Assembly (NCBI GenBank): GCA_045634605.1
Contig: JAZRAN010000154.1
Span: 1 to 35,776 of the forward strand
Origin: Candidatus Stercoripulliclostridium sp.
GTDB lineage: Bacteria; Bacillota; Clostridia; Christensenellales; DTU072
DNA length: 35,776 bases
Reading direction: 5' to 3'
Below are positions 3,003-32,486 of the stretch, piece after piece. The notes under the pieces are model-generated. The model did no database searches. It was not told where the DNA came from and saw nothing but the letters and a program-made list of their open reading frames with translations. A program made the translations under genes and the position numbers. The stretch's first letter is position 1, and every line of letters begins with the position of its first letter.

Positions 3003-3014
3003 GGAGAAAAAATT

Positions 3015-16183: not shown

Positions 16184-16717
16184 CTAAAAGTTGCTAGGTG
16201 TTGTCACCCAAATAATTTTTGCTTCTTTTGCGCCTACGTTTACTATTTTATGTTCGTGCGCTCCATCGATATAGAATGCTTCTCCGCGCTTAGCGGTATG
16301 AGTTTTACCATCCGATTCTACCGAGATTTTACCTTCCAAAACGTAACCAAACTCTTCTCCTTCAAACGGATATCTTACGTCAGACTCACCATTTTCCGGC
16401 AAAACCAATAAGATAGGTTCCATATCGTTCTTTTGTGAGTTAGGTATAAGCCACGTTGCGCTACCCGTGCCGTTTTGTGAAAGGAAGAAGTCATTTTTAC
16501 CAAACACTACTTGTTCTTCCCTTTCTTCCGCAAAAAAGGCCTGTAACGTAACGCCCAGTACGTTAAGGATATCCATAAGAGTCGCAATAGACGGAGATGC
16601 CAGGTCGTTTTCTAGCTGACTTATATAGCCTTTGGTAAGCTCCGCTCTCATTGCAAGTTCTTCTTGCGTTAATCCTCTACGCAATCTAATCGATTTTATC
16701 TTTGCGCCAATTTCCAT
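16184..16717 (-). CDS. XRE-family HTH plus cupin transcriptional regulator (PuuR-like), first gene of the pot operon
   Basis: The HTH reads IKSIRLRRGLTQEELAMRAELTKGYISQLEN, and the C-terminal cupin reads GEEFGYVLEGKISVE...GEAFYIDGAHEHKIVN. I place the start at ATG 16717 (GGAG 6 nt upstream) rather than the track's GTG at 16729. Its TAG stop overlaps the potA RBS. Confidence 0.85.
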   Translation of the reverse strand: MEIGAKIKSIRLRRGLTQEELAMRAELTKGYISQLENDLASPSIATLMDILNVLGVTLQAFFAEEREEQVVFGKNDFFLSQNGTGSATWLIPNSQKNDMEPILLVLPENGESDVRYPFEGEEFGYVLEGKISVESDGKTHTAKRGEAFYIDGAHEHKIVNVGAKEAKIIWVTTPSNF

Positions 16718-16758
16718 AATTTTCTCCACGTTTGCGTATACCTACGCATTATAAAATA

Positions 16759-16787
16759 ATGATACCAACAATGCTTAATACTGTCAA
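16759..16787 (-). promoter_or_regulatory. Promoter of the regulator-potABCD operon
   Basis: The minus strand reads TTGACA (16787-16782), 17 nt, TATCAT (16764-16759). Confidence 0.5.
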
Positions 16788-16850: not shown

Positions 16851-16875
16851 AAAAAGCGGAAGGCGGTTGCCTTCC
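16851..16875 (-). terminator. Rho-independent terminator of the giant gene
   Basis: The minus-strand RNA reads GGAAGGC-aacc-GCCUUCC followed by GCUUUUU. The stems are 16858-16864 / 16869-16875, 16 nt after the TAA stop. Confidence 0.75.
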
Positions 16876-16891
16876 CCTTTCATTGTGATAA

Positions 16892-19800
16892 TTAATATTT
16901 GCCTTGAGCAACGTTTACGTAACGTAAATAGCCTTGGTAGTTCCACGCATCCTTCCACAAGGTTTGGAAGTCACCGCCCGTCTTTTGACAGTCTGCCGCA
17001 TATACCTTGCTACTACTGCTTGCGCTCTCCGTAGTACCACTTACGTTCCAGTCGGGAGCATAGCTTGATGAAGTATATCCGTCGGTGTCATAGAAGTATA
17101 CGTGAGCCGTTCCGCTTAGGTAGTTAGTTCCTTCATAACCCCAAGTAAAGCCTGCTTCTATGCTTGCGGGGTCGTATCTTGTACCACCGCCAACGTACTC
17201 TGCGCTTGCCTCGACGTAAACGTTCGTTTCGCCCTTCTTATTACCACTTGATTCGCCTATATAAACGTACATCGGCAGATTTACGTCGCTTGCTTGGTCT
17301 ACCCATAGGTAATGGAAGAACTTGATATATGCCGTACCGCTTATGGAAGTAATATTGCTATTGCTACTATATCCGCAAACTGCCGCTAGGTAAGACTCAC
17401 TGGTTAGGGTGTCGTTAGACCTTCTGTTAACCATCAACTTAGCATTTACGCTTACGGTGTCGATGGTACCGATATTATAGCCTACCGCTCCACCTGCGTA
17501 AATGGTTGACGTATCTGCGCCTGCATCTCCGTGCATTAGTCCGTTAGAGCCGGAAGTCGGGACGTATTCCCTATTATCTGCCGTTACGATTTCGTACGCC
17601 GCAGTAGTCCTGTTGTAATCGTTAGTTGCAGTACTTACACCGCTTATTCCACTGCCCACCAAGTAACCTGCGTTAAAGCCTATCATACCGCCGTACGTAC
17701 CGCCTTCATAAGCCGTTCCTTTTTGACGAGAAGTATAAAGTCTTGCTTTTACGGTTGCATTTTCTACGGTACCAAAGTTTACGCCGACCAATCCGCCGAC
17801 CATAGAGCCGGTAAGAGTGAGCGTATAGTTGCCGGTAGTAGTAACGCTTGCGCCACTAATAGTACCATTGTTATAACCTGCTATACCGCCACCGCCGTAA
17901 TTTCTTACGTTGCCGTTTTCATCCCAAGTAGGAGCGTCAAAGCCTGAAGGCGCGCTATATGAACGAACTTCGGAGTCACTGTCACTCAAAGTAAACGATA
18001 CGTTAGAAATCGTTCTGTTTGCGCCGACTGCGCCTACTATACCGCCTATTGCAATCTTATTATAAGTGCTTGCAAGGCGTGTGTCTATTGCGCTTACGTT
18101 ATCTATTGCAACAAGTCCGGTATCGCTTACGCTTGCTTGAATCGTACCTGCTATACCACCTGCGCCAATACCAAGAGCGCCCATACTGCTTCCATTTACT
18201 ACAGATACGCCCTTGACCGTATATCCGCCGTTCTTACCTTGGACGCTACCGTAGTTGCCGATTGAGCCGACGATACCGCCCGCGCCACCGGTGTAGTCGC
18301 TACCTTGACCAAGATATGAACCGCCTACGGTAGCTACGATATTGAATGATGCGATGCTACTATTGGTGATAATACCATGCTCAAGGCTTTCGCCGGAAAT
18401 GATACCAACTAAACCACCAACGAAGTTGGAGCCGTTTACGGTATTGGAAATACTTGGCGAACCTTTTTCTACGTAGTATACGTTTTCTATGCGACCGCCA
18501 AATACGCTACCTGCTATGATACCTACGTTATTTGCGCTTGCCGCAACGTACGCTCTACCTAGGGCAATATTCTTTACAACGCCACCGCGATAGATTCTGC
18601 TAAAGATACCTACGTTTTCTTTAATGCCGGATGAACGCAAATCTAGTTGTACGTTATATAGAGCAAAGTTACCGCCGTCATAAACACCGTTAAAGCCGTT
18701 TGAGTAATAAACTCCACCGGAAGTGAAAGGCATACACAAAGGTCTATCAAGCGTGTTGTTAACTTCGTTAAGATTGATGTCCGCTACTTGCTTAAAGTGG
18801 ATACGTAATGCTTGACCGCCTGAATATCCGTAGATTAGGTTTGCATTGTTGCCCTTGTAGAGATTATCTACGTTACGCAAATGGTCTACCGTTCTGATCT
18901 TGAAGGGTTTTGCTTCCGAGCCGTCGCCTGCGGTTGCAAGAGAATCGCCACCGTCGAAGGGATAATCGTATAGGCTGATTGCGTTATTTACTCTTGTGGT
19001 AAAGCGTTTTACGTCTACCAAGGGTTCCGCGCCGTCCCATACGCCGTTCGAGTTAGAGTCGGTATATGCTTCGCCGAGATCCCATACGCCGTTAGCATTA
19101 GAGTCGGTTAAAGGCTCTGCGCCGTCCCATACTCCGTTGCCGTTTAGGTCTTCATATTCTTCGCCAGCATCCCATGCGCCGTTATAAACGTATTCATACT
19201 CATTCCACGATGCTTGACCATAGTATACGACGTGTTGAACCTTCTTTGATATCTTAGAGCCGTCAAAGTTTACACCTAAACTAATGTTATCGCTGTCGAG
19301 AACGTTCATGCTTTGAACGATGCGGTTTGCATAATCGCCACTTACTTGACCATCGAAAGTTCTACCTGATAAAATCGGTATTCCGTTAATGGTAATGATG
19401 CCGTCTACAACGTCGTCTACGTCGCCCACGCCACCATCGTTTACGTAGTACGCAACGTTGCCTTGAGCGTCAACCGATTCTTCCACTGAATTAGTATCGT
19501 TTTCTTTTAGGATTTCACCAAGTTCGTTGGGAAGTTTGATTGCAGAGCCAACGTATACGTTATGCAATACTAACGAGCCGTAAGACTCAAAGTTTACGTT
19601 AACGGTCTTTTCTGCGTTTGCGGTAATGACTATTTCCATCAATTCGATTGCGGAATTATATTCATCCCACTCTTTTGCAAGGATCATATCTCTCAAATCG
19701 CCATCTTTAGGTATGGACGAATTGATAGCGTCGGTAGAATTGTTACCATCCCAAACGTTTTGGTTGTTTTCATTTACGGAAGTAATGCCTACGAATCTAT

Positions 19801-22800
19801 CGTACAAGGGGTTAAAGTACGTTGAATCGTTGATATTGCCGGTATAACTGGTAGATAGAGTAAATACGTATTGAGTTCCTACGCGAGCGTTATCTATGGT
19901 AATCATCCTATTACCGGAGACTTCGCCTACGAGTTCCCAAACGCCGTTGACCTTTTGATAGCAGTTTAGCGTGGGCATCGCATCGGTTAGTACTTGGCTA
20001 AAGCCCGATACGTTCGATACCCTTATACTTAATGTATATACGCGTACGTAGCGCGCGAATATCTTGAACGACGCATCCATTAGAACTTGCATTTGCTTGG
20101 TTACGGGGTTGTAGTTATAGGAGATATATTCGCCCGTTCCTACGCCTTGAACGTTCTTTATTTCTTCCGTCTTCAAGTAATAGGTTGTAGCATCAAGTCC
20201 GCTACCTTCAACTACTAATTTGTCATAACTGCTTTCGCTTGCCGTTGCTTCTAGGCGTTGATATCCGCCGTTGCCGTTTTCGGTTATATACCAACCTTCA
20301 AATACGTAACCGGGGATTTCGCCGTGTAGTAGCGTTTGAACGGTATTGTAGTTAAAGTAACCGTTAGAACGAGAAGTGCTGTTAATCTTGGGCTCCGCTT
20401 CGCCTTGACCATCTATGAATATGGTATCGGTGGAAAGCGCGGTAGACTTAACAAGCGTCAAGTTTTCTACCTTTTGGAACAAAGGTCTAATTCTTATCGC
20501 GCTAATATTAGATGATGAAATCCAATTACCGTTGTAATCATATTGCGATGCGTCATAGTTGAATCCACTCATTACGCTTTCATCAATGCCGATATATGCA
20601 GGATAGGTTGAACTAAACAAGCAAGATATCGGGAAGGTGAAGGTGCCCTTGGTTACAAGGTTGGTTTGAGAGTTGGGGTCAACGTAAGGAATATTTCTCC
20701 ACTCATAAGTTCCCGTTACCTTGTTGTATGCGTAGTATTGCCATGCGATAAAGCTAAAGCTGTCGGAAGATTCCGCTCCGCCTATCCAAGATAGCGTTAG
20801 CATATTGTCGTTCCAAGTGTTGTAGGAAGAGCCTGCGTGATTCTTGTTTGAATTATCGATGGTGTTAATCTTGCCCAACATTTGGAATGCGGTATCCGTT
20901 CTATACGAGTTATCTGCGCCCAATCTGGACTCAATGCTGTATGAAGAAGTAAAGTATTGAGTCAAGCTTTCGTCATATACGATAGTAGACGCAGTAATTT
21001 GTCCGGGATTCAAATAGTTACCGCTATCGACGTATTCGTTTTCTACAACAACGTTATATACGGGTATAAATTTTGCTACGATTTCTACGTTATAAGTGGT
21101 CTTTTGAACACCATCCGTAGCGGTAGTACTTTCTACGATATTTACGCCGTTAGGTAGATTGTCAAGGTTATTTAGTACGAAATCGCCTTCATAGGTTGAC
21201 GGATAGTTTTGTCCTAATTGCGTGTAGGAGTTAATTCCGTTGATGAAATATCCCACGAATTGATAGTACTTCTTATAACCTAACAGACTCGTCAAAGTCA
21301 TTCCGATATCATAGAACAATCTATCGTTGTAATCGTAGGTGATGGTTTGCGGTTTGTATCTGTTGTTTGCATCCGCCTTGTTAGCGCTTAGATTTTCGTA
21401 TCCCGAAGACCTATCGGTAAACCAAATGTCATATCCGGTAGCAAAGCTTCCGCTATCGGGTTCATCGGTAAACCACTCGACTCTGGTGGTTACGGAAATT
21501 TGCTTCCAGAACCTAATCTTGAAGATTGAGTTTTCTGCAAGGTGATTGAAGGTTACGGAAACTCTACCGATTCTACCGCCGTTTGCCAAATATGCGTCAA
21601 CGTCGTTTATTACTTCGAACTTATCGTTGTAGTAAACCATCGTTACGCTACCATCCGCCTTTGCGGTAACGGGGCTATAAGTCGAGCTAAATTGCTTGAA
21701 TCCTTGTGCATCGGGAACGGAAAGCGGTAGTAGTTCGAGCATGCTGTCGAATCTAAAGCTTTCTTTGGGGGTAATGTTGACGGTTAATGTTTGATTGGGG
21801 CTCATAGATAGCGAGTTATTAGTCAAGCTACCTACGGTTGCGCCGTCGATTGCGTAAGTTACGCTACCACCTTCGCTCTGTACCTTGGAACCTACGGTTT
21901 CCATAGCGAAACTTATCATCATAGTATTCTTGAAGTATGCGTAAACGAGTCTTTCTTCTAGAGTTTCTACGCCGGAAGTATAGCCGTCTTCACGTTGAGT
22001 GAGCTTGCCACCCACTTCGCTTATTACGCAATAACTATATCCCTTGGTTTCGTTCTTGGAAATGCTATCTCTACCGCGTAGGACTAAGCGAGCGCCACTT
22101 AATACTCTATAAGTATAGGTTGCATCAGCGTTACCATCGGTGTCTTCAAGGATTTCTTGAACGCCTGCTACGTTGGGTAGTATTACTCCGCGGTCTAAGT
22201 TTTCGGTGTAGTTTGCGGTTGCCGTCAAACCTGCGTATTGACGATACTTCATACTGCTCGGATCGTTGTTTGCAAACGAGCCTTCAAAGTACTTGTATTC
22301 AGGATGTATTTGAACGGTTATTTCATATACACGGAAGAATACTGCTCTGAACGTACGGTTAGAAGTCATAGTATAGCGCAATACTTGACCGTTAGATTGT
22401 AGCGTAATACCGGTACCATCGGGGTCGTGAGTTACGTATGACCATACTCCGTTCTTGTATTCTTGGAATCCTTGGAAGGAGTATCTTCTTGCGCCTACGG
22501 CGGGTACGTTGACGGTTATGGTTGCTTCCGTGCCGTAAACGTGAGTAGTTACGTCCTTTCTATCGCTAAACGATGCGCTTACGTTGAATGCTCTGTTACC
22601 GCTTATGGTAGGAATTTGAGCGGAAGTGATTGTGGAGCCCTTGTTTATGACTCTTTCGTTTTCCGTGGTCGCTTCTACCAAATAGGTTTGAACGATGGAT
22701 TCATGCTCGTCAATAGCCACAGTGTAGTATACACGGATGACGTTTTGAGAAGTAGAGTGATAATCCATCATGGAAAGAATTGCATCGTCTAGTTTGACGT

Positions 22801-25800
22801 CTAGTCCGCTTGCCTTCTTGGTAAATAGGTTATAGTTACGGTCAGCCGTTCCTTCCAATGCGAAATTGTACGCAACGGCCAAGGGGTTATTCTTAGGCAT
22901 ATTGTAAAGAGAGACGCCCGTTATAGAATATCCTTCCTTTAGTTCGTGCGCTATGACGTTTTCGGTGTCGAAGATGAATTGATTGTTTTCTAGCGATAAA
23001 CCTAACGTTTCATCGGTGTATAGCGCAGTGATTTGCAAGTTGTTTACAAAGAAGACTACTTCAAACTTTTGCTTTTCATAAGTGGGAAGTATGGTTATCT
23101 TGCTTTGTCCGTTTACAAACGCATCGTTGATTTCTATCTTCTTTTCTCCGCCGCCAAGAGCTGTCGTAGTGGTTGAGTACTTGTAACGCATGCCGTCCTT
23201 TTCGTATACGGTAGGTATGCTAATGCCGTTGACGTCAAGTTTAGAGAGATAATAACCCGCGTCGGAAACGAGCTTGAGTTCAAAGAGTTCGTGGTGGCTT
23301 ACTAACGTAATACCGGTAGATTCATATTGTCCACCGCTGGCTATAACGTATTCGATTGCGTATTGCTTGATAGCGTAGGTTACGTTTACTACTACGTTAC
23401 CGGTCATACTCGGTATAGTGAAAGTACGAGTACCGCTACCATCGTCCGCATCAAGACCGTTTTCGTTTTGTACTAGGCTTGATATAACTCCACCATCATT
23501 ATCCATAGTAATGGAAACGGACGTTATTCTATATCCGTTGGGAGCTGTTAAAGATATGGTTAGTTTGTCCGCAAATACCGCTTCTCCAAGCAATTGTCCT
23601 ACGTCGGAGAAGTTGCCTTCTACGTTAGTGAAGTACTCGCCGTACTCTTTGCCACTTACGTTCTTGTTGATGATTACGCCACTTACTGCGCTTACCTTTC
23701 TTACTACTTCGCCGTTTTGTACGATATCGTAGGTCTTAGCGAAGTCTCCGTTGAAGGTTACGTCATACTTCTTGTTTGCTAGCGTAATTACTATTTCCAA
23801 GTTAGAAGTTACGTGTAATTCGGTATAAGTTCCATAATCTTCTAGCGCATTTGCGATAACGGGCTTTTCATCACCGTTAATCATAACGCTTTCCATAACG
23901 TAACCGCGGTTGATATCAAGCTTAATCGTCATGCTTTGATTCCACTCAACAACGCTAGTGCTTAGTTGAGCAAGACCGCCCGTGAAACTATTTACTGTAA
24001 TGCTATAAGTATGGATGGTGAAAGCTACTTCACAATAAGTATCTTTCTTTACTTCGTAACTTTGACGCATAGTTGCATCTTCGTTTTCTATGCGCTTAGA
24101 TTCTCCGTTAACTTTGAAAGCGGAAATTCTATTGCCTTCTTCAACGTATCCGTTGAATGCGTTATGGGGCATTGCGGAGAATATTACGTTTGCGCCGTAA
24201 GTTACCTTTATGCCGTCTTCCGTTGCCCATATGGTTCCGGTGCTTAATTGACGTACCGCAAGCGTCCATAGTCCATCGGGAGCATTACCCGCTTCGGGCG
24301 CTTCGTCCAAAATAATAATTCCGGGAGCCCAAAGCAATACGTCGTCTACGTCATAGATAGCGTATTCACCGCCTAGGCTAGCTTGCATATCTACTTCAAA
24401 GGTTTGAATTTGATATTTTACGCTAATATCCAAGTCGGAATTGATAGTACCTACGTACGCATTATTTCTTAATGATTTGAGTCTATCTTCGCCGTTAACG
24501 TTAAATACACCGTGAGTATAACCTTCCCCGGGCATTGCTTTAATCGTAAAGTTCAAACCATGTTCATACTTGCCGTTTTCTAGAATTACGGTTGCGTTAG
24601 AATAAGGATTGGTAAATACGGGCTCAAGACTTCCGTTAGATAGCCACGGAGCGCCTTCGCTCTCTATGGTAAGAGTTTGCGTATAGGAATAAGTACGTCT
24701 CTTGAACTCTACGTTTACGGATTGAATATCTCTGGAAATTCCCTTTAAGATATATGAACCGCCGTTTTCGCCAATAGATTCGTTAGAGCCGGTCAAGTTA
24801 ATTCTTTCGGATTGAGTCTTGCCGTTGTCGTCAATATAGATGAGTTCAAATAGCGCGATATAGTATCCACGAGCCGTTCTTGGCGTAATAACGAACTTGA
24901 CGTTACTTCCGTGGATATAGCGCTTGGACGCATCGGGCGCAGAGCCGTTAATAGTAACTACGCCGTAAGAGTTGCTTTCTACGTCTATTGTCTTAAAGTT
25001 AGCGCTTTCATTGGTTGCGTTAACGTTAATTTGATATTCGTTGACGGCATATTCTACTCTAATGGTAATATTACCGCTTACTTCGTCTTTGAGCGTATAG
25101 AATCTTTGACTTAGGTCGTTAGCGGAAACGTTATCTTCCTTCCAATCATCAACTTCTACTCCGTTAACTTTTAGGGATGCAATATGATATCCTACGTCCG
25201 CTTTCATCATTAGAGAAATGATATCTCCAAGGCTTAGTTTTACTTCGCTTGCGGGACGATATGCGTCTTCCCCTTTCTTAACTAGCGTTTCTCCACCCAA
25301 AACCTTGTCAATAGTTATAGAGTATACCATCGGTGAGAATTCTACCGCTAGGTCAACGTTACCGGAAACGTAAAGTTGTAGTCTACCGGAAACGTATTCG
25401 CCACTTGCAATGGGCGTGCCTATTAGATTCGTAGTGGAAACCTTTTCTCCGTTAAGGATTATAGCGCTAATGTAGAAACCGTCGTTAGCGGTAATTTCTA
25501 CGGTCTTGGTTTCGCCGTAATTTACGTTAACGGTACCGGTCGTACCTACGCCACTCAAAGAGCCGTTTGCGCCATGAGTATACGTAAGTTCATATTGAAT
25601 AGGAGCAAATGATGCGGTAATCGTCAATTCGCCGGTTACGTATTCGCCCTTGAATTCATAATTGAGAACGCCGGAAACGTAGTTCTCATATTCGGTGCTC
25701 GTGAGTGGTTGATGTATTACGCTAGAACCTTCTACGGTAATAGCGAATGCGGAAACGTAATAACCTACGTTAGGAGTTAATCTTACGTTGAAAGATTCGT

Positions 25801-28800
25801 TCTTGCGTACTAAACTCTTATCCGTTGCTATTACGCCGTGTTGCGCGCCGGATTGAATGTTTACTGCGTAAACGATTTCTTCGAATACTGCGCTAACGAT
25901 TGCATCTTCTTTTATTGTTAAAGTATATTCGCCGTCAATTAAAGGAACTTCTTTACCGTTTATTACAAGAGTTTTTGCAGAACTTCCCGTGTTTGCGCTC
26001 AATGCAAATTTTACTTGACTGTTAACTTCAAGCGCGCTACCGGAAACAACTGCATTACCATTTCCGTCCGTAACGCTCAATACACCGTTACCTTCCACTC
26101 CGTAAGTAAGAACGTGTTCGCTTGCATTGGCGTCTTCGCCTTCAAAATAGACGTATACGTCTATTGCGGTAGTTACGTCGTAAACGAACAAGGTGGTTAC
26201 TTCATTGCCCAGCATATCGGTAGAAGACAATAGAGAATAATATCCGTTTAATTTGTTTTCTACGTATTCGCCTTCCAGCGGTAGATATTGGTAGGTTTCT
26301 CTTGCATCTTGATTCTTTACGATAATGTTGGCAAGAGAGAGTTCATATCCTTCGGATATGGTAACTGATACGTTGACGTCTCCGCCGTAAGAAACGGTAG
26401 CAACGTAAGTGTTGCCTATAACGCTTTCGTTGTTGATGCTTACTTCGTTATCGGCCTTATTGATTAGGTATACCTTGTAATCCACGCTAATCGGCAAGCA
26501 GTCGATTACTACGGAGTAACTGGCGTTTACGTTACTCAAAGTAATAACGTGCGACTTGGCAAAGAAGTTGGTCGTTTCGTCACGGTCAATGCCCGTATTT
26601 GACTTAACGTTAATCTTGTTGATGTAATAGCCTTCTTTCGCCTTTACTTCAAAGTCAACGGTAGATGCGTGTTCAATATTGTTAAAGGTATAGCCTTCGC
26701 CGTTGACTAGATTGATAGTGCTACCATTATAAGTTATGGAAGTATTGCCTTCTTTTTCTTCAAAACGTACGAAATAAGTAGTTCTTCTGAAAATAAACTT
26801 TACGTCGTAGTCTTTCTTTGCGGCGCTTACTTGGAATTCTCTGGCTAATTGTACGTCGTCAAAAGTTTGTTCTTCTCCGCCGTCGATAACTACTGCGTTT
26901 ACGTAATATCCGCTCGTAGTAGATGCTCTAACGCTAAACGCCTTGTTGTAACCGATAGTAAAGGGCGCGTCAACCGAACCTATGCCTTCGTATGAAGTCG
27001 TTACGTTATAGTATAATTCCGCATATTCAACCGCAAAGGTAACGTCACTTTCTATGCCGTCGATAGAAAGAGTCATCTTCGTTACTCTGTAATCGTTTAC
27101 GCCATCCTTGGGAGCTTGTCCGTTAACAAGGAATTCTCCGTTTTCTGCGTTCTTATATACGGTATATCCGTTTACCGCAACGTATGGGTCTACTATGGTG
27201 CCGTTAGCGGTAACTCTGCGGATATAGTAGCCGTCTTTTGCCGTAACGGAGAATCTGGGCTCGTTGCCCCTTAGGAAAGTTAAACCTTCGCTTTCCGCCA
27301 CCATTTCGCCATATTCGCTTTCCGCAGGAAGAGTTACTCTATACGAGAACTCGCGGTAAGTGATTACTACGTTTTGATTTTCGGTTACGTTTTCTATAAT
27401 GAGATTATAATACGTTGCTTCCGCGGGTACTTGTTGGTTTACGCCGTTGAGAGAAACGGATGCTATGTAATATTGTTTACTACTGGGTTTGTTTTCATTT
27501 TCGGGAACTATTTCAATAGAAATACCGGAGCCGTAGTTTACTTGGGTGAGTACGTTTTCACCAAGTTGACTTTGGGTTTCGTTGGTACCTACTATGCCAT
27601 AGGTGATAGTACCGTTATTGGTAGCGCCACTGCCGTTTGTTATAGATACGCTATATTCACTCAAAGTAAATACCGCTTCTATGCTGTAATCGGAACTTAT
27701 GATTGCATTAATCGTTACGTCATAATATCCGTCTTCACCCGCAAGGTTTTGACCGGAAGTGGTTGCGCCGTTAATGGTTACGGAAGAAAGCGCGTATCCT
27801 TCGGTAGGACGAATTCTAATAGCGTAATCTTTGGTAACGGGCATATCTACTCTGTTGGAAATGCTCTTTTCTATGGCTTCTTCGCCGGGGTTAGCCGTTA
27901 GAGAATAGATGGAACCGGAGCCGATTATGGAAACGGTTAGCGCCTTGGTGTTTTCTTCGAATACCGGCACGACGTATACAACGGGACTTTCTACCTTGAA
28001 GGTCTTATCTACTACCTTAGAAGTGGGAAGTCTGTCTGCGTCCGCAAGATACCAACCTTTAAAACTATAATTGGTCTTAACGGGAATTTCTTCCGGGAAA
28101 GAGCCGGTTACAGCGCCTGCAAGATTGTCTTGATAGTATGCGGTAACTACCCTACCGCTTGCGCCTAGTACGCCGTCTACGTTTTCTTGATATCCATTAG
28201 CGGGGTCGATAAAGGATGGGTCTTCGTTGTCACCTTTTAGGAATACTACCTTATAGATTTCCTTTTCCCAATACGCAACCAGCGTGGTGGGTTGAGTAAA
28301 CGTGGTGCTATTCTTTACTAATACGGGAGAGCCGTTTGCGTTAACTTCGCCGTTTTCGGCATACCAACCCTTAAAGGAATAACCCAACATAGTTAGGTAG
28401 GACGTATCTTCTACGTCGAATACTTGACCTATGGGCGTTTCGTAACTAACGTCGAATAGGTCGAATATCTTGTTGCCCATAGAAGTAAAACTTATATCGT
28501 TTTGGAGTTTTACAAAGTGCGCCTTTACGGAAATAGAATCAACGTATTCGTCGGGAGTAAAACTCAAAACGTATTCTCTTTGCGTGCCGGTGCGCGTAGA
28601 AATAAACTCAATAGCGTAATCTGCGCCCACGTGTACGAGTTTACCACCGCTCATTTCCGGGTCTAGACTTACCCAAGAATTGAGTTCTACGTTATAGACC
28701 GACCAGCCTACAAACTTATAGTCTTGTGAAATGGGAGAAACGCGTACCGTTGCGATTTCGTCCTTTTCATAGAAACTAAGAGCGTCCGTCGTGCCTATTA

Positions 28801-29635
28801 TTTCTCCATCGGGGGAAGTAGTGCATTCTATGCTGAAATCGGTTGCATACTTTTCGTACAAGGGGTAAATGTTGGTGTCTTTGGTTATATGAGTATAATC
28901 AACGTCCCATCCGATAAAACGATATCCGTACATTTGCATATTATGCTCGTCGGCGCGCGGAATCTTGATGGGAGACTCGTTGTAAGCAACTTGTTCTTCT
29001 CTTGCGGTAGTGCCGTCGGGATAATAGAATACTACGGAGTAAACCAATTTCTTGAACGTTGCGACAAGGCGCATACTCTTGGAAACCTGTTTGTCGAGCC
29101 TGTTAGCATTGGGGTTGCCGTCCGACCATCCGGCAAAATAATAACCTTCGTCGGGGATAGCTTCTACGCGAGTCGCATCCGCGCCTGCGCTTACGTTTTG
29201 AACGTTAACGCCGTCTATTCTACCGCCGGTAGATGCAATATATTCGACTTGTAATTCCGTGGGTACTACGTTAAAAGAGACCGTTTGCTTAAATCCACCA
29301 AAGTCCAAAACAACGCCGTCAACGACGCCTTCGGCGCTCGTGTCGAGACCGGTGACCACGAGTTCAGAAAGCGCAACTTGAGCAGACGAGCCGTCACTAT
29401 ACTTGACGGTTACGAAAACTTGCGATGGGTCTGCCCCAACGGAAATAAGCCCGTTATCGGGCGTAACGATAGCAACGACGTCGGGCGTTGTATGTTCCGT
29501 GACGTCCGCATATTGCGGTAATATAACCGCAGCCGCCACAACCGATGCAACTGCTACGACTAAAACGGCTATCATTGTGATGCCTAACATCCCGTTAAGG
29601 GAGAAACGTTTTCCTGTTACTCTTAATTTTGCCAT
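16892..29635 (-). CDS. Giant (4,247 aa) N-terminally membrane-anchored surface protein: InlB B-repeat / Listeria-Bacteroides repeat stalk, EF-hand-like Ca loops and a GLUG-motif C-terminal domain
   Basis: One uninterrupted ORF. I place the start at ATG 29635 (GGAG 8 nt upstream) rather than 29707. The TM helix is LGITMIAVLVVAVASVVAAAVIL. About 9 motifs resemble YYFAGWSDG, YRFIGWDVD, YSFKGWY or YVFEGWY. About 17 resemble GYHIASLKVNGVEV, GFYISAIILNGEKV or GYVMESVMINGDE. There are three DxNxNGVWDxxE loops and about ten GG[ILMA][VIA]G GLUG-like motifs. I see no LPXTG or SLH motif. Confidence 0.9.
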   Translation of the reverse strand: MAKLRVTGKRFSLNGMLGITMIAVLVVAVASVVAAAVILPQYADVTEHTTPDVVAIVTPDNGLISVGADPSQVFVTVKYSDGSSAQVALSELVVTGLDTSAEGVVDGVVLDFGGFKQTVSFNVVPTELQVEYIASTGGRIDGVNVQNVSAGADATRVEAIPDEGYYFAGWSDGNPNANRLDKQVSKSMRLVATFKKLVYSVVFYYPDGTTAREEQVAYNESPIKIPRADEHNMQMYGYRFIGWDVDYTHITKDTNIYPLYEKYATDFSIECTTSPDGEIIGTTDALSFYEKDEIATVRVSPISQDYKFVGWSVYNVELNSWVSLDPEMSGGKLVHVGADYAIEFISTRTGTQREYVLSFTPDEYVDSISVKAHFVKLQNDISFTSMGNKIFDLFDVSYETPIGQVFDVEDTSYLTMLGYSFKGWYAENGEVNANGSPVLVKNSTTFTQPTTLVAYWEKEIYKVVFLKGDNEDPSFIDPANGYQENVDGVLGASGRVVTAYYQDNLAGAVTGSFPEEIPVKTNYSFKGWYLADADRLPTSKVVDKTFKVESPVVYVVPVFEENTKALTVSIIGSGSIYSLTANPGEEAIEKSISNRVDMPVTKDYAIRIRPTEGYALSSVTINGATTSGQNLAGEDGYYDVTINAIISSDYSIEAVFTLSEYSVSITNGSGATNNGTITYGIVGTNETQSQLGENVLTQVNYGSGISIEIVPENENKPSSKQYYIASVSLNGVNQQVPAEATYYNLIIENVTENQNVVITYREFSYRVTLPAESEYGEMVAESEGLTFLRGNEPRFSVTAKDGYYIRRVTANGTIVDPYVAVNGYTVYKNAENGEFLVNGQAPKDGVNDYRVTKMTLSIDGIESDVTFAVEYAELYYNVTTSYEGIGSVDAPFTIGYNKAFSVRASTTSGYYVNAVVIDGGEEQTFDDVQLAREFQVSAAKKDYDVKFIFRRTTYFVRFEEKEGNTSITYNGSTINLVNGEGYTFNNIEHASTVDFEVKAKEGYYINKINVKSNTGIDRDETTNFFAKSHVITLSNVNASYSVVIDCLPISVDYKVYLINKADNEVSINNESVIGNTYVATVSYGGDVNVSVTISEGYELSLANIIVKNQDARETYQYLPLEGEYVENKLNGYYSLLSSTDMLGNEVTTLFVYDVTTAIDVYVYFEGEDANASEHVLTYGVEGNGVLSVTDGNGNAVVSGSALEVNSQVKFALSANTGSSAKTLVINGKEVPLIDGEYTLTIKEDAIVSAVFEEIVYAVNIQSGAQHGVIATDKSLVRKNESFNVRLTPNVGYYVSAFAITVEGSSVIHQPLTSTEYENYVSGVLNYEFKGEYVTGELTITASFAPIQYELTYTHGANGSLSGVGTTGTVNVNYGETKTVEITANDGFYISAIILNGEKVSTTNLIGTPIASGEYVSGRLQLYVSGNVDLAVEFSPMVYSITIDKVLGGETLVKKGEDAYRPASEVKLSLGDIISLMMKADVGYHIASLKVNGVEVDDWKEDNVSANDLSQRFYTLKDEVSGNITIRVEYAVNEYQINVNATNESANFKTIDVESNSYGVVTINGSAPDASKRYIHGSNVKFVITPRTARGYYIALFELIYIDDNGKTQSERINLTGSNESIGENGGSYILKGISRDIQSVNVEFKRRTYSYTQTLTIESEGAPWLSNGSLEPVFTNPYSNATVILENGKYEHGLNFTIKAMPGEGYTHGVFNVNGEDRLKSLRNNAYVGTINSDLDISVKYQIQTFEVDMQASLGGEYAIYDVDDVLLWAPGIIILDEAPEAGNAPDGLWTLAVRQLSTGTIWATEDGIKVTYGANVIFSAMPHNAFNGYVEEGNRISAFKVNGESKRIENEDATMRQSYEVKKDTYCEVAFTIHTYSITVNSFTGGLAQLSTSVVEWNQSMTIKLDINRGYVMESVMINGDEKPVIANALEDYGTYTELHVTSNLEIVITLANKKYDVTFNGDFAKTYDIVQNGEVVRKVSAVSGVIINKNVSGKEYGEYFTNVEGNFSDVGQLLGEAVFADKLTISLTAPNGYRITSVSITMDNDGGVISSLVQNENGLDADDGSGTRTFTIPSMTGNVVVNVTYAIKQYAIEYVIASGGQYESTGITLVSHHELFELKLVSDAGYYLSKLDVNGISIPTVYEKDGMRYKYSTTTTALGGGEKKIEINDAFVNGQSKITILPTYEKQKFEVVFFVNNLQITALYTDETLGLSLENNQFIFDTENVIAHELKEGYSITGVSLYNMPKNNPLAVAYNFALEGTADRNYNLFTKKASGLDVKLDDAILSMMDYHSTSQNVIRVYYTVAIDEHESIVQTYLVEATTENERVINKGSTITSAQIPTISGNRAFNVSASFSDRKDVTTHVYGTEATITVNVPAVGARRYSFQGFQEYKNGVWSYVTHDPDGTGITLQSNGQVLRYTMTSNRTFRAVFFRVYEITVQIHPEYKYFEGSFANNDPSSMKYRQYAGLTATANYTENLDRGVILPNVAGVQEILEDTDGNADATYTYRVLSGARLVLRGRDSISKNETKGYSYCVISEVGGKLTQREDGYTSGVETLEERLVYAYFKNTMMISFAMETVGSKVQSEGGSVTYAIDGATVGSLTNNSLSMSPNQTLTVNITPKESFRFDSMLELLPLSVPDAQGFKQFSSTYSPVTAKADGSVTMVYYNDKFEVINDVDAYLANGGRIGRVSVTFNHLAENSIFKIRFWKQISVTTRVEWFTDEPDSGSFATGYDIWFTDRSSGYENLSANKADANNRYKPQTITYDYNDRLFYDIGMTLTSLLGYKKYYQFVGYFINGINSYTQLGQNYPSTYEGDFVLNNLDNLPNGVNIVESTTATDGVQKTTYNVEIVAKFIPVYNVVVENEYVDSGNYLNPGQITASTIVYDESLTQYFTSSYSIESRLGADNSYRTDTAFQMLGKINTIDNSNKNHAGSSYNTWNDNMLTLSWIGGAESSDSFSFIAWQYYAYNKVTGTYEWRNIPYVDPNSQTNLVTKGTFTFPISCLFSSTYPAYIGIDESVMSGFNYDASQYDYNGNWISSSNISAIRIRPLFQKVENLTLVKSTALSTDTIFIDGQGEAEPKINSTSRSNGYFNYNTVQTLLHGEIPGYVFEGWYITENGNGGYQRLEATASESSYDKLVVEGSGLDATTYYLKTEEIKNVQGVGTGEYISYNYNPVTKQMQVLMDASFKIFARYVRVYTLSIRVSNVSGFSQVLTDAMPTLNCYQKVNGVWELVGEVSGNRMITIDNARVGTQYVFTLSTSYTGNINDSTYFNPLYDRFVGITSVNENNQNVWDGNNSTDAINSSIPKDGDLRDMILAKEWDEYNSAIELMEIVITANAEKTVNVNFESYGSLVLHNVYVGSAIKLPNELGEILKENDTNSVEESVDAQGNVAYYVNDGGVGDVDDVVDGIITINGIPILSGRTFDGQVSGDYANRIVQSMNVLDSDNISLGVNFDGSKISKKVQHVVYYGQASWNEYEYVYNGAWDAGEEYEDLNGNGVWDGAEPLTDSNANGVWDLGEAYTDSNSNGVWDGAEPLVDVKRFTTRVNNAISLYDYPFDGGDSLATAGDGSEAKPFKIRTVDHLRNVDNLYKGNNANLIYGYSGGQALRIHFKQVADINLNEVNNTLDRPLCMPFTSGGVYYSNGFNGVYDGGNFALYNVQLDLRSSGIKENVGIFSRIYRGGVVKNIALGRAYVAASANNVGIIAGSVFGGRIENVYYVEKGSPSISNTVNGSNFVGGLVGIISGESLEHGIITNSSIASFNIVATVGGSYLGQGSDYTGGAGGIVGSIGNYGSVQGKNGGYTVKGVSVVNGSSMGALGIGAGGIAGTIQASVSDTGLVAIDNVSAIDTRLASTYNKIAIGGIVGAVGANRTISNVSFTLSDSDSEVRSYSAPSGFDAPTWDENGNVRNYGGGGIAGYNNGTISGASVTTTGNYTLTLTGSMVGGLVGVNFGTVENATVKARLYTSRQKGTAYEGGTYGGMIGFNAGYLVGSGISGVSTATNDYNRTTAAYEIVTADNREYVPTSGSNGLMHGDAGADTSTIYAGGAVGYNIGTIDTVSVNAKLMVNRRSNDTLTSESYLAAVCGYSSNSNITSISGTAYIKFFHYLWVDQASDVNLPMYVYIGESSGNKKGETNVYVEASAEYVGGGTRYDPASIEAGFTWGYEGTNYLSGTAHVYFYDTDGYTSSSYAPDWNVSGTTESASSSSKVYAADCQKTGGDFQTLWKDAWNYQGYLRYVNVAQGKY
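19025..19195 (-). repeat. 45-nt (15-aa) tandem repeat x4 encoding EF-hand-like calcium-binding loops inside the giant gene
   Basis: The loops are DLNGNGVWDGAE (19150-19115), DSNANGVWDLGE (19105-19070) and DSNSNGVWDGAE (19060-19025), separated by 3-aa linkers. A degenerate upstream unit EYVYNGAWDAGE lies at 19195-19160. The DNA copies share ccgtcccatacgccgtt-type cores. Confidence 0.75.
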
Positions 29636-29674
29636 AATCCGGTCTCCAATGGATTTACGTCGATATATGGCACT

Positions 29675-29703
29675 ATTATATATAATAAAAAGCGCGCACG
29701 CAA
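29675..29703 (-). promoter_or_regulatory. Candidate promoter of the giant gene
   Basis: The minus strand reads TTGCGT (29703-29698), 17 nt, TATAAT (29680-29675). The predicted 5' UTR is about 33 nt and contains GGAG. Confidence 0.4.
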
Positions 29704-29716
29704 GCAACGTACGCGT
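29685..29716 (-). terminator. Rho-independent terminator after the GlmM-fusion gene
   Basis: The minus-strand RNA reads CGCGUACG-uugcuug-CGUGCGCG (8 bp including one G-U) followed by CUUUUUAUU. The stems are 29708-29715 / 29693-29700. Confidence 0.65.
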
Positions 29717-29761: not shown

Positions 29762-31708
29762 TTAGTCCCCGGAGCGCCTATCGACTGCCACTTGACAGGG
29801 CCTTGATATGACGAATTTGTTATCTTCCACGTCACTCGCTACGGTAGTACCGCCGGCAATAAAGCACCTATCCCCTACTTTCAGTGGGGCTATCAAGTTG
29901 ACGTTGCAACCGATAAACACGTCCTTACCTACTTCCGTTTTGCGTTTGACCTTGCCGTTATAATTTGCAAATACCGCGCCACAACCAACGTTCGTTCTTT
30001 CCCCTACCTTAGCATCGCCAACGTAAGCCAAGTGAGCGCATTTTACGCCGTCGCCAAGAGTAAAGTTTTTTATTTCCACAAAGTCACCTACTCTGCACCC
30101 GTTGCCGATTTCCGCCCCTTTCCTAAGAGTTGCAAAAGGTCCTATCGTAGAGTTTTTCCCCACCTTTGCTTGCTCGCAATTGCTAGAACGAATTTCCGTA
30201 TTATCTCCTATTTCCACGTCTAGCAAGTCGCAGTAAGAATAGATTTTTACGTTTTTACCTATTACACTGCTTCCGCGTATAACGTTAAAAGGATATATTA
30301 CGCTACCTTCCCCAATCTTTACCCCTTTTTCTATAAACGTGTTCTCGGGAGAAATTACAGTAACCCCCGTATATTCTTCTATGTTTACTCTTTGGGTATC
30401 CGTTTTAACGCTTTTAGTATTCTCTTTTGGCAAATTATTATTTATGGCGCCAATTACGTAATCCTTTATTTCTTCCACCTTGGCTCTTACCAAATCTTCA
30501 TTTTCCCCTTCCACCAATATTCTTATTTTAGGTTCCGTCCCACTCGCTCTAACGACTACTCTCACCCCACAGCCTTCTATTTTTTGCAAAAAGTTGCTAC
30601 TTCCGTTGACTTCTTCAAAAGATTTCTTTTCTTTCTCCGTAGCCACCACAAAGGTTTCTACGCAAGGATAATCTAGGTAATCTACCCTTTCTTCCAAACC
30701 CTTTTCCGCATCGGCAAGCGTTACCAACAAGGAAATTAATATGCCGTCCCCTGTTTCCGCCCATTTTCTTGCTATTACGTGTCCGCTATTTTCCCCGCCT
30801 AGCAATAGACCGCTTTTTACCATTTCTTCGTACACGAATTTATCCCCTACGTTTGCCCTTACAAACGTCACTCCACGCCCGGCAAACGCTTTTTCCAATC
30901 CTACGTTAGAATTAATCGTACCCACTACGCCACTTGCGCCCAAATATTCGCTTAGAGCGTAAAGAATAGCGTCCCCGCTATACACTCGACCGTCTTTTAC
31001 GCAAATTACCCTATCTCCATCTCCGTCATAAGCAAACGCTAGGTCGTAATCCCCTTTTCTTTCTTCTTCTAGCAAAGGGTCCAAACACGTCGCTCCACAG
31101 TTTACGTTAATTTTTTCTCCGTCATACTCATCGCGCAAAGCCGTTACCACGCAACCTAAATCTTCAAAAATTCTTTTTGCCGTTATTGCGGTTGCGCCAT
31201 AACACACGTCAAGCAATATTTTCTTACCCCTTATTTTATCGCCTACGATATTTTTTAGGTAATCTTCGTATTTGTCCGTCCCAACCAAACACTTAACGCC
31301 CCTTTCTCGCGCCCCCACAGGCTCGATAGCGCGCGTAATTAACGTTTCTATCTCTTTCTCCGCAAAAGCGGAAACCTTCGCTCCTTGCCCCGAAAAAAGC
31401 TTTATCCCATTGTATTCGGGCGGATTATGGCTTGCGGAAATCATTATCCCCAAATTGCACTCGTTGTACTTTGTAAGATACGCAACCGCAGGCGTTGGCG
31501 CTATACCCACGTCTAACACACGCATCCCATAACTTGATAAACGCAACGCAAGCGTTTCCGCTATCTTTTTACCGCTAGTACGGCTATCTCTCCCTATTAA
31601 AACTTTAATTTTCCCGTACTTTTGATATATTGCCGACGCAAATTTAAAAATAAATTCATCGTCAAAGCACTCCGCCTTCGCTCTTATTCCATCGGTGCCA
31701 AAACGCAT
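29762..31708 (-). CDS. glmM: Fusion protein: phosphoglucosamine-mutase-like domain plus GlmU-type left-handed beta-helix acetyltransferase domain (no uridyltransferase domain)
   Basis: 648 aa. The N-terminal ~425 aa carry FGTDGIRA, ISASHNP (phosphoserine loop), AYDGDGDRV (Mg site), GGENSGH and RASGTEPKIRI. The C-terminal ~200 aa read GPFATLRKGAEIGNGCRVGDFVEIKNFTLGDGVKCAHLAYVGDAKVGERTNVGCGAVFANYNGKVKRKTEVGKDVFIGCNVNLIAPLKVGDRCFIAGGTTV, which closely parallels the E. coli GlmU C-terminal domain as I recall it. Confidence 0.85.
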   Translation of the reverse strand: MRFGTDGIRAKAECFDDEFIFKFASAIYQKYGKIKVLIGRDSRTSGKKIAETLALRLSSYGMRVLDVGIAPTPAVAYLTKYNECNLGIMISASHNPPEYNGIKLFSGQGAKVSAFAEKEIETLITRAIEPVGARERGVKCLVGTDKYEDYLKNIVGDKIRGKKILLDVCYGATAITAKRIFEDLGCVVTALRDEYDGEKINVNCGATCLDPLLEEERKGDYDLAFAYDGDGDRVICVKDGRVYSGDAILYALSEYLGASGVVGTINSNVGLEKAFAGRGVTFVRANVGDKFVYEEMVKSGLLLGGENSGHVIARKWAETGDGILISLLVTLADAEKGLEERVDYLDYPCVETFVVATEKEKKSFEEVNGSSNFLQKIEGCGVRVVVRASGTEPKIRILVEGENEDLVRAKVEEIKDYVIGAINNNLPKENTKSVKTDTQRVNIEEYTGVTVISPENTFIEKGVKIGEGSVIYPFNVIRGSSVIGKNVKIYSYCDLLDVEIGDNTEIRSSNCEQAKVGKNSTIGPFATLRKGAEIGNGCRVGDFVEIKNFTLGDGVKCAHLAYVGDAKVGERTNVGCGAVFANYNGKVKRKTEVGKDVFIGCNVNLIAPLKVGDRCFIAGGTTVASDVEDNKFVISRPCQVAVDRRSGD

Positions 31709-31808: not shown

Positions 31809-32486
31809 TTATAAGAGCGTAACTGCTTTTAGTAGCGTGTTTGCGTTGATTTCGCAAGCCCTGAGCGCAAATTCTTCATACGTCATATTAGAGCCGTCAC
31901 CGGCAGAGTCGCTTATTACTTTGAGAGCGCCGAATTTTACGCCCGCGATATAGCAAACTTGAGCGCAAGCTCCGCATTCCATATCACAAGCGACAGCGTT
32001 AAAGGTTTCTGCTATGCGCTTTGACTCTACGTCACTCGCAACGAACTTATCTCCGGTTGCGACACGCCCTAAAACAGCGCCATCCGCCGACTTTAATATC
32101 GAGTTCGATACTTCTTCATCCGCATCAAAATAAACCTTATTCAGCCCGCTAATGAGCCCTATGGGGTCGCCGAGAGCAGTAGTGTCGCTATCGTATTGAC
32201 AAACGCTACTTACGGAAAGTACGCTTAGCGGTTTTAATTTACCTATACCGCCTGCAATACCGGTGTTTATGACGCACTCTACCCCGTAACGCTCTATCAT
32301 TATAGCGGTAGTGAAAGCAGCGTTTACTTTGCCTATGCCGGCAAGAGAAAGAACTATTTCCTTATCTCCTACTTTACCTATGGTAAAGAGTTTACCTTTA
32401 TATTCTTCGGTATAAGTGTCCGAAAGCCCACGGATGATTCCATGGGCTTCTTTTTGCATTGCTACTAATAAACCTATCTTTTTCAT
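31809..32486 (-). CDS. mtnN: 5'-methylthioadenosine/S-adenosylhomocysteine nucleosidase
   Basis: 225 aa with MKKIGLLVAMQKEA, LAGIGKVNAAFTTA, INTGIAGGIG and ACDMECGACAQVC, typical of Pfs/MtnN (PNP_UDP_1 fold). Its ATG overlaps the upstream stop (TAATG). Confidence 0.85.
   Translation of the reverse strand: MKKIGLLVAMQKEAHGIIRGLSDTYTEEYKGKLFTIGKVGDKEIVLSLAGIGKVNAAFTTAIMIERYGVECVINTGIAGGIGKLKPLSVLSVSSVCQYDSDTTALGDPIGLISGLNKVYFDADEEVSNSILKSADGAVLGRVATGDKFVASDVESKRIAETFNAVACDMECGACAQVCYIAGVKFGALKVISDSAGDGSNMTYEEFALRACEINANTLLKAVTLL

Follow-up and report, generated by a model that had tools for sequence, protein, structure and literature searches.

How might a bacterium hold and use a protein of 4,247 amino acid residues (aa)? 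The question is raised by a stretch of 35,776 nucleotides from Candidatus Stercoripulliclostridium sp. (contig JAZRAN010000154.1, assembly GCA_045634605.1). This whole stretch is referred to here as the window. A single gene on its reverse strand encodes a giant protein with a short basic N-terminus, one apolar segment, a long series of beta-rich modules and a C-terminal beta-helix of the GLUG type. The best explanation of the whole, to which a probability of roughly 0.55 may be given, is that the protein is an exported adhesive fibre anchored by its N-terminus.

An intact gene kept in place across species

The giant gene and its flanking signals are located as follows.

16892-29635, reverse strand: complete coding sequence of the giant protein, 4,247 aa plus stop (open reading frame listing, ribosome-binding site, orthologue N-termini)
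29644-29647, reverse strand: ribosome-binding site GGAG, 8 nt 5' of the ATG (read from the sequence)
29675-29703, reverse strand: possible promoter TTGCGT, 17-nt spacer, TATAAT, with a poor -35 and a perfect -10 element (read by eye)
29693-29715, reverse strand: terminator-like hairpin and T-run closing the upstream glmM-glmU-like gene, with an in-frame TTG (29707) inside it (hairpin scan)
16858-16875, reverse strand: intrinsic terminator of the giant gene, a 7-bp GC-rich stem followed by a T-run (terminator scan)

The stop codon lies at 16892-16894. The open reading frame (ORF) to which the gene belongs is by far the longest of the window and is listed as 16892-29707 on the reverse strand, or 4,271 aa if counted from an upstream TTG. 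This TTG was rejected as the start because it falls within the terminator-like hairpin (29715-29693); it also has no support from orthologues. The ATG at 29635 is the true start, as supported by the ribosome-binding site, by the TTG within the hairpin and by the orthologues. All 15 orthologues with a complete 5' end share the N-terminus MAK(L/Y)R.

The initial annotation described a single 12.7-kb gene for a 4,247-aa protein, with its own promoter and its own strong terminator. The gene is indeed one intact ORF, and its own terminator is confirmed. The promoter has fared less well and is plausible only. A perfect TATAAT (29680-29675) lies 3' of the preceding gene's terminator, but its -35 element is poor and a consensus scan reported no promoter upstream of the gene. 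The base composition of the gene is unremarkable relative to the window.

Relatives of the protein are few. An exhaustive HMMER search with the C-terminal 707 aa against 1.84 billion cluster representatives found only six proteins below E 1e-30. The full-length relatives are P0007 (4,813 aa), P0008 (4,207 aa), P0010 (4,134 aa), P0011 (4,100 aa) and P0012 (4,131 aa). Each of them is colinear with the window protein over its full length, at 37-61% identity. An index of 5.8 billion proteins largely misses the family, with five matches to the C-terminal 707 aa, one to aa 2200-3440 and none to aa 1-130.

A scan of GTDB, limited to one genome per species, found 20 loci. They lie in metagenome-assembled genomes (MAGs) labelled Candidatus Stercoripulliclostridium, Clostridia or Christensenellaceae, sampled from goat, sheep, roe deer, chicken and anaerobic digesters. 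In 12 of the 20 loci the ORF is intact and measures 4,094-4,264 aa, one locus (L014) is split, and the others run off contig ends. Altogether, orthologue lengths span 4,094-4,813 aa and identities 37-90%, the closest orthologue (L028) being 90% identical over the query segment. Fragments of the P0012 type also occur on contigs of 1.4-1.6 kb (L023, P0045, P0050) in MAGs labelled Spirochaetia and Crenarchaeota/Thermoproteota. These are most likely binning contamination rather than a true distribution outside Clostridia.

The order of the genes around the giant gene is likewise conserved. It consists of Big_2/Beta_helix proteins, a transmembrane (TM) protein of about 330 aa, PNP_UDP_1, in some loci a GlmM-GlmU fusion, the giant gene, an HTH-cupin regulator, a pot-like ATP-binding cassette (ABC) transporter and a GH38 mannosidase. 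This order is kept even in the most distant orthologue. Judged from these comparisons, the gene is vertically inherited and under purifying selection, since about 20 species have it whole, colinear and in the same gene order. Selection on it must be strong, because 12.7 kb of a probably small genome have stayed whole, colinear and at one chromosomal position in species with only 37% identity between them.

Very long repeat ORFs in metagenome assemblies are prone to collapse, so the ORF could be an assembly artefact or a decaying pseudogene that is open by chance. No entry of the public collection equals the window protein exactly, and the L014 gene is in two pieces, both of which could be counted in favour of this explanation. 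Against it, independent assemblies from at least 12 species carry an intact colinear ORF in the same neighbourhood, and identical orthologues of 4,131-4,133 aa recur on many independent contigs. The DNA itself offers little to collapse. The only tandem repeat in the gene is an array of about three copies with a 45-nt period (19020-19184), and beyond it there are only three scattered 27-nt copies with 67-74% identity. The modules of the stalk are mutually 20-35% identical at the protein level. The conserved synteny and the full-length colinear orthologues thus show that the gene is not an assembly chimera. They answer the earlier worry over a chimera, collapsed repeats or a pseudogene, and make an artefact hardly credible.

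The split gene of L014 (JAFXIB010000089.1, a MAG from sheep rectum) consists of ORFs of 2,443 and 1,778 aa, with a stop or frameshift near aa ~2400. The break may be a sequencing error, or else the gene is a true pseudogene in this species.

From the base to the tip

Following the apolar segment, the protein can be divided into seven parts.

29258-29479, reverse strand: membrane-proximal immunoglobulin (Ig)-like domain, aa 53-126, with weak Big_3/Rib matches (Pfam, conservation)
27836-29257, reverse strand: five canonical Flg_new/Flg_new_2 (InlB B-repeat) modules, aa 127-600 (Pfam)
23036-27835, reverse strand: stalk of 16 divergent Flg_new_2-like modules of ~95-115 aa each, aa 601-2200 (self-built hidden Markov model, profile scan)
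19181-23035, reverse strand: family-specific beta-rich region with long conserved inserts and four decorated B-repeat signatures, aa 2201-3485
19016-19180, reverse strand: three EF-hand-like loops DxNxNGVWDxxE with a 15-aa period, a lineage-specific insertion of variable copy number, aa 3486-3540
17456-18970, reverse strand: GLUG-type right-handed beta-helix with eight GG[LIM][VA]G rungs, aa 3556-4060
16895-17455, reverse strand: C-terminal beta-sheet domain (beta-sandwich) ending in LWKxAWNYxGYLRY, with conserved aromatic residues, aa 4061-4247 (alignment, AlphaFold)

The N-terminal modules belong to the InlB B-repeat class. Flg_new scores 46-48 bits, above the Pfam gathering threshold (cut-off 27), and Flg_new_2 reaches 52.2 bits in tile 1 and 32.5 in tile 4 against a cut-off of 23.6, so both families proposed earlier are found. 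Besides these scores, the protein has the tandem modules of ~70-100 aa with GYxFxGW that mark the class, the signatures lying at aa 165, 238, 306, 419 and 523.

The stalk is more divergent. A hidden Markov model (HMM) trained on the protein itself located 16 modules at aa 604-2193, and a sliding profile-profile scan shows them running unbroken from ~aa 570 to 2230. One of them passes the Pfam cut-off for Flg_new_2 by itself (32.5 bits). Their kinship with the N-terminal Flg_new_2 module is weak, with an hhalign probability of 47% by direct comparison and 86% for aa 121-220 of the window protein.

The next 1,300 residues differ from the stalk. Pfam has nothing above threshold for aa 2200-3485, and the sole relative of aa 2200-3440 in the index of 5.8 billion proteins is partial. 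The stalk-module profile also fails here, save for a weak match at aa 2550-2710. An AlphaFold model of aa 2250-3449, built from seven sequences, is all-beta and of low confidence, with a predicted local distance difference test score (pLDDT) of 59.6 and a predicted template modelling score (pTM) of 0.37. Its Foldseek matches are generic strings of Ig and fibronectin type III domains and pilins (E ≥ 1.5e-3, probability ≤ 0.35). Since these are generic and insignificant, no fold was assigned. Four degenerate B-repeat signatures can still be recognised (YSFQGFQ at 2385, YQFVGYF at 2791, FSFIAWQ at 2960 and YVFEGWY at 3110), and in three of the four (2385, 2791 and 3110) a closing strand xxAxF/Y follows 40-80 aa behind. 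This pattern suggests large decorated B-repeat units.

The very long run of beta-rich modules described initially is therefore modular and beta-rich as stated, but it is not a uniform stalk, as ~1,300 aa of it (2200-3485) are non-standard. The count of more than 25 modules is about right only when the four large decorated units of aa 2380-3200 are included. About one third of the protein is without a recognisable domain and is thus a source of new folds.

Conservation is uneven along the chain. The Ig-like base is the best-conserved part of the protein (76% identity), followed by the first two modules (73%), the distal region (56-58%), the head (54%) and finally the stalk, which is the least conserved (48%). 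Such a gradient fits an anchored, wall-spanning base followed by a spacer and functional distal parts.

Between the middle region and the head lies the loop array, whose units occupy aa 3496-3540 and are encoded by the 45-nt tandem repeat of the gene. Read by eye, the units have acidic or amide residues at EF-loop positions 1, 3, 5, 9 and 12. Pfam has no EF-hand, dockerin or thrombospondin type 3 (TSP3) match for these three copies, nor for the 43-copy array of P0007. The best sequence match of the loops in the PDB is the EF-hand protein EhCaBP1, which is marginal at E 0.22.

The array varies strongly between orthologues. In 14 of 18 it is missing at the site occupied in the window protein. 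In the lineage of P0007, L012 and L008 it is expanded to about 37-43 tandem loops, which form a highly acidic insert of ~640 aa, and these expanded proteins measure 4,808-4,813 aa in three independent assemblies. The array is thus best taken as an expandable, lineage-specific insert rather than a defining part of the architecture. The initial annotation was right that loops are present (three units) in what it called an EF-loop hinge, but a conserved part of the design they are not. Likewise, the survey of homologues for domain order found colinearity over the whole length, with the loop element missing from most. An array of predicted Ca2+ loops that varies in copy number can be seen as a small natural experiment in the tuning of a surface fibre.

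The orthologue L028 has one loop at the site of the window array and two elsewhere. These extra loops, DANNNGKYDLGESYVDSNNNGRWDD, lie at its aa ~2743-2770, equivalent to aa ~2755 of the window protein. It seems that the loop unit can become inserted at more than one place along the chain.

The head opens with the motif GDGSEAKPFKIRTVDHL, and its eight GG[LIM][VA]G motifs fall within aa 3740-4060. Its invariant residues are mostly Gly and Asn at rung positions. A conserved Arg/Asp cluster, KLMVNRRSND, lies behind the helix at aa 4066-4075. The Pfam family Glug (PF07581) is just sub-threshold, at 18.8-19.2 bits against a cut-off of 20.5. An AlphaFold model of the head from a nine-sequence alignment has short, regularly spaced strands (pLDDT 74, pTM 0.80); the last ~100 aa of the protein are poorly modelled.

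Evidence for the fold of the head is provided by both structure and profile. The best Foldseek match of the model in the PDB is 3n6z (BACOVA_03286, a “putative IgA1 protease”), with E 4.9e-5, probability 1.0 and a target TM score of 0.55. The second-best match is the beta-helix of pneumococcal IgA1 protease (7jgj, 6xjb), and in a viral structure library the head matches beta-helices of phage proteins also named “putative IgA1 protease”. A phmmer search of the head against PDB sequences found no match; the family profile alone (hmmsearch) reached that of 3n6z, at E 5e-5. The corresponding beta-helix of IgA1 protease forms an N-terminal domain without catalytic function, which moves by ~10 Å when substrate binds and gates its access (PMC7695701).

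With Pfam Glug sub-threshold, it is the profile match and the fold match to 3n6z that assign the head to the GLUG-type fold. The head is thus a GLUG-type right-handed beta-helix without a detectable catalytic module, because the window protein has neither a Pfam match to M26 or another peptidase domain nor an HExxH motif anywhere in its sequence. Of the GLUG-rich C-terminal domain claimed earlier, the motifs and the fold stand, while the Pfam cut-off is not reached.

The head or the middle region could instead be an enzyme, such as a polysaccharide depolymerase, a lyase or a protease, which the fibre would bring into position. The right-handed beta-helix is the scaffold of tailspike depolymerases and of pectate and alginate lyases, and such proteins are among the weaker fold matches of the head. 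The neighbouring genes, which include Big_2/Beta_helix proteins and a GH38 mannosidase, would also suit an enzyme. The significant matches, however, are solely to GLUG-type helices, and the helix of IgA1 protease lies outside the catalytic domains. Tailspikes and lyases trail in the same search with E > 0.04 (about 0.05-2), probabilities of about 0.5 or less (most ≤0.2) and TM scores ≤0.3. The window protein likewise lacks Pfam matches to glycoside hydrolases and polysaccharide lyases, and the conserved rung residues do not speak for an active site. A catalytic role is therefore quite improbable.

A separate homologue of the head is known from the relative P0003, for which a precomputed PF07581 match is marked as faint. 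This 591-aa protein (33% identity) is encoded in L002 (ENA ERZ28613984 scaffold_4039), a spore-former with a GerA operon nearby, directly after an ORF of >1,569 aa. Either a similar fibre is split here, or a frameshift separates the two.

Proposed anchoring and display

The opposite end of the protein begins with two short elements.

29588-29635, reverse strand: basic cytoplasmic tail MAKLRVTGKRFSLNGM, aa 1-16, with 70% mean identity in 15 orthologues
29516-29587, reverse strand: uninterrupted apolar segment ending in LP, aa 17-40, a putative uncleaved signal-anchor

The apolar core at aa 17-39 corresponds to codons 29519-29587, exactly where a TM helix behind a short basic N-terminus was first proposed. 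It is the single segment in the entire protein above the Kyte-Doolittle 19-residue threshold (within aa 10-45), and nearly all orthologues likewise have no further hydrophobic segment. Five basic charges precede it (K3, R5, K9, R10 and the N-terminus) and acidic residues follow it. The basic tail, the apolar run of 23-24 aa and the acidic flank are kept in all orthologues with a complete N-terminus, and have the charge and apolar pattern of a type II signal-anchor.

No other attachment signal was recognised. A scan of the whole window protein found no LPxT[GAS] and no C-terminal hydrophobic segment, so it does not resemble a sortase substrate. Two orthologues contain LPxTG-like strings whose positions were not located; their C-termini have no hydrophobic-basic tail. 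Searches of the whole protein or of tiles with SLH, LysM, CW_binding/choline-binding, GW and SH3b families gave no Pfam match (E ≤ 1-10) and none in NCBIfam. The signal-peptide motifs YSIRK (TIGR01168) and KxYKxGKxW (TIGR03715) are unmatched in aa 1-80 (NCBIfam, E ≤ 1), where a chance match to EssB was the only one. The absence of LPXTG, SLH, choline-binding and LysM motifs noted at first is thus borne out.

An uncleaved segment is suggested by conservation. Identity among the 15 orthologues is 70% for aa 1-16 and 68% for aa 17-40, compared with a protein average of about 50%, which would be unusual for a discarded leader and favours retention. Behind the apolar stretch, position -3 is occupied by K, R, Q or N, several orthologues have P at +1, and a conserved small-x-small or AXA site is not present. 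As few parts of the protein are as well conserved as the N-terminus, and as its apolar segment is not followed by a conserved cleavage site, anchoring of the fibre at this end is plausible and may be called somewhat probable. The helix was previously presented as the only anchor. It is the only hydrophobic segment, and no wall anchor or C-terminal anchor competes with it, but the anchoring itself is an inference and an internal cleavage site may exist.

Three points weigh against an N-anchored adhesive fibre. First, every orthologue has V/A/I in alignment column 33 and A/G in column 35, both inside the apolar stretch, where these residues could provide an internal signal-peptidase site. Second, the envelope type (monoderm Clostridia) is assumed from MAG labels only. 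Third, the middle 1,300 aa could hide an activity invisible to the tools used.

The first of these points leads to another explanation, in which the N-terminal segment is a long Sec signal peptide that is cleaved. The mature protein of ~4,200 aa would then be released, and would either be loosely bound to the wall through an unrecognised domain or serve, in free form, as a matrix or agglutinating protein. Long signal peptides do occur in Gram-positive bacteria, and columns 33 and 35 obey the -3/-1 rule in all orthologues. No part of the mature protein is better conserved than its N-terminal 300 aa, which could be a module for binding the wall, and the aromatic C-terminal motif is another candidate for attachment. 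Yet the apolar run has neither a polar c-region nor a helix breaker ahead of the candidate site. Its n-region and h-region are conserved above the protein mean, and known wall-binding domains were not detected by Pfam or NCBIfam. Cleavage is thus the less probable course, though one to be taken seriously.

Under N-terminal anchoring, the protein would be exported by Sec as a type II (N-in, C-out) membrane protein, and its basic tail and apolar segment would remain in the membrane. The remaining ~4,200 residues would form a long, mostly beta-stranded chain in which some 25 beta modules are extended. We infer an extended chain because of the type of module and the absence of any globular or TM signal. 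From the cell outward, the order would be a base of Ig-like and canonical B-repeat domains, a spacer of 16 modules, a conserved beta-rich distal region, and the GLUG helix with the C-terminal beta-sandwich. As a rough figure from the module count, the head might be displayed on the order of 100 nm from the cell.

There the head would bind a glycan or protein on other cells, on feed particles or in host mucus; together with the conserved distal region it would make up the working end of the fibre. A binding surface is proposed because the homologous helix is non-catalytic and catalytic motifs are missing. The loop array between stalk and head would be an optional, expandable insert, which may stiffen or lengthen the junction upon Ca2+ binding.

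These elements can be joined into one more specific proposal. In it, monoderm gut Clostridia would build a sortase-independent fibre of ~100 nm held only by an N-terminal signal-anchor, and the cytoplasmic tail (MAKLRVTGKRF) would have a role of its own. The distal region of ~1,300 aa would have a fold not yet in the PDB. The helix-less EF-hand-like array, with 0 to about 43 copies between close lineages, would serve as a Ca2+-tunable extension or hinge that sets the reach and stiffness of the GLUG head. This proposal as a whole is rather improbable. The host Clostridia are uncultured and recur in ruminant, chicken and digester communities, where the fibre is likely a determinant of attachment to particles, mucus or partner cells.

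Neighbouring genes and known systems

Several features of the window surround the giant gene. Just upstream, at 29762-31708 on the reverse strand, lies a gene for a 648-aa protein in which a GlmM-like phosphoglucosamine mutase (aa 3-418) is fused to the acetyltransferase half of GlmU, a left-handed beta-helix (aa ~412-643). Its GlmM part scores 340 bits with TIGR01455, under the equivalog cut-off, and the uridyltransferase half of GlmU is absent. The fusion adjoins the giant gene in the P0007 and P0008 loci, and does not do so in the P0012 locus.

Farther upstream, at 32486-33415 on the reverse strand, a protein of ~309 aa has a basic N-tail and one N-terminal TM segment (MAQPSTPGFIKGCVIVPLVTILVLVIVVVAGGLIVL...). 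It matches no Pfam or NCBIfam family. Every syntenic locus has a counterpart of 311-340 aa that separates the Big_2/Beta_helix proteins from PNP_UDP_1, and the protein may be a further surface or envelope component of the neighbourhood. Toward the end of the window, an ORF at 33481-35715 on the reverse strand has weak Big_2 and right-handed beta-helix matches. Its orthologues are 854-906 aa long and are preceded by a Big_2 protein of ~900 aa. The giant gene therefore stands beside other large predicted surface proteins.

Downstream, an HTH_3-cupin regulator (16184-16787, reverse strand) heads the pot-like ABC transporter operon. Its promoter at 16787-16759 is near-consensus, with TTGACA, a 17-nt spacer and TG-TATCAT (11/12 matches). 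The regulator adjoins the giant gene in every orthologous locus. Adjacency is all that connects the two, and nothing links them functionally.

Elsewhere in the window, a 318-aa ORF after the split transketolase genes (4036-4992, forward strand) has no Pfam match at E ≤ 0.001, and PADLOC found no match to a defence system. In the searches with the giant protein, a match to choice_anchor_U (19.7 bits, cut-off 32) was rejected as chance, as were matches to PLA1, NADase_transloc and InhA-MAM, all far under their cut-offs.

The closest known class is that of the InlB B-repeat proteins (Flg_new PF09479, Flg_new_2 PF18998, TIGR02543). The N-terminal modules of the window protein pass the cut-offs of this class and 16 more are related to it by profile. 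One orthologue, MBQ8178424.1, is already named “InlB B-repeat-containing protein” at NCBI; the others are “hypothetical”. This name, however, refers to a repeat and not to a function, and the repeats make up only about half of the window protein. The combination of an apolar anchor, an unmatched region of 1,300 aa and a terminal GLUG helix is limited to a small clade.

The head resembles 3n6z and the helix of IgA1 protease (6xjb, 7jgj) in its GLUG-type fold and in the shared start motif G-x-G-[ST]-x-x-x-P-[FY]-x-I. Identity is only 13-19%, and the protease domain (M26) and its HExxH have no counterpart in the window protein. At ~500 aa the window helix also exceeds these in length. A 3,500-aa stalk carries it at the C-terminal tip, and a beta-sandwich comes after it.

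The loops can be compared with those of EF-hands, dockerins and TSP3 repeats. The unit D-x-N-x-N-G-x-W-D-x-x-E fits their ligand positions 1, 3, 5, 9 and 12; unlike them, the window units have no flanking helices and no Pfam match. By our own reading, the unit fails the PROSITE EF-hand pattern by a Trp at loop position 8.

Other giant surface proteins show that long display rods are not new. Ebh, Embp, SasG/Aap and the serine-rich-repeat adhesins are very long or megadalton rods of many small beta or helical modules that project a binding region from the Gram-positive cell. Their signal peptides are of the YSIRK or KxYKxGKxW type, and they are anchored by LPXTG or by a C-terminal TM segment. 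The window protein has none of these signals and is built of other module types, while this class has no GLUG head.

Giant proteins have also been described from metagenomes. They are mostly extracellular and repeat-rich, are proposed to function in attachment, and have many domains that are visible only by structure prediction (bioRxiv 10.1101/2023.11.21.568195). Listeria-Bacteroides repeats are mentioned once in the same preprint (West-Roberts et al., bioRxiv 10.1101/2023.11.21.568195). The proteins described there exceed 10,000 aa and have a predicted C-terminal TM segment and dockerin or discoidin domains, whereas the window protein has 4,247 aa, an N-terminal apolar segment and no dockerin match.

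Giant repeat-built surface proteins are thus a familiar class, and the window family is an uncharacterised member of it that introduces no new principle. The architecture had been called the most unusual thing in the window, with no obvious characterised equivalent. It is distinctive, and no characterised protein shares it; it is less exotic than first claimed, the class being known and one orthologue already carrying its name. Particular to the family are a fixed colinear architecture of ~4,100-4,800 aa in a small clade, an apparent N-terminal anchoring in place of sortase or SLH attachment, a GLUG tip and a variable EF-like insert.

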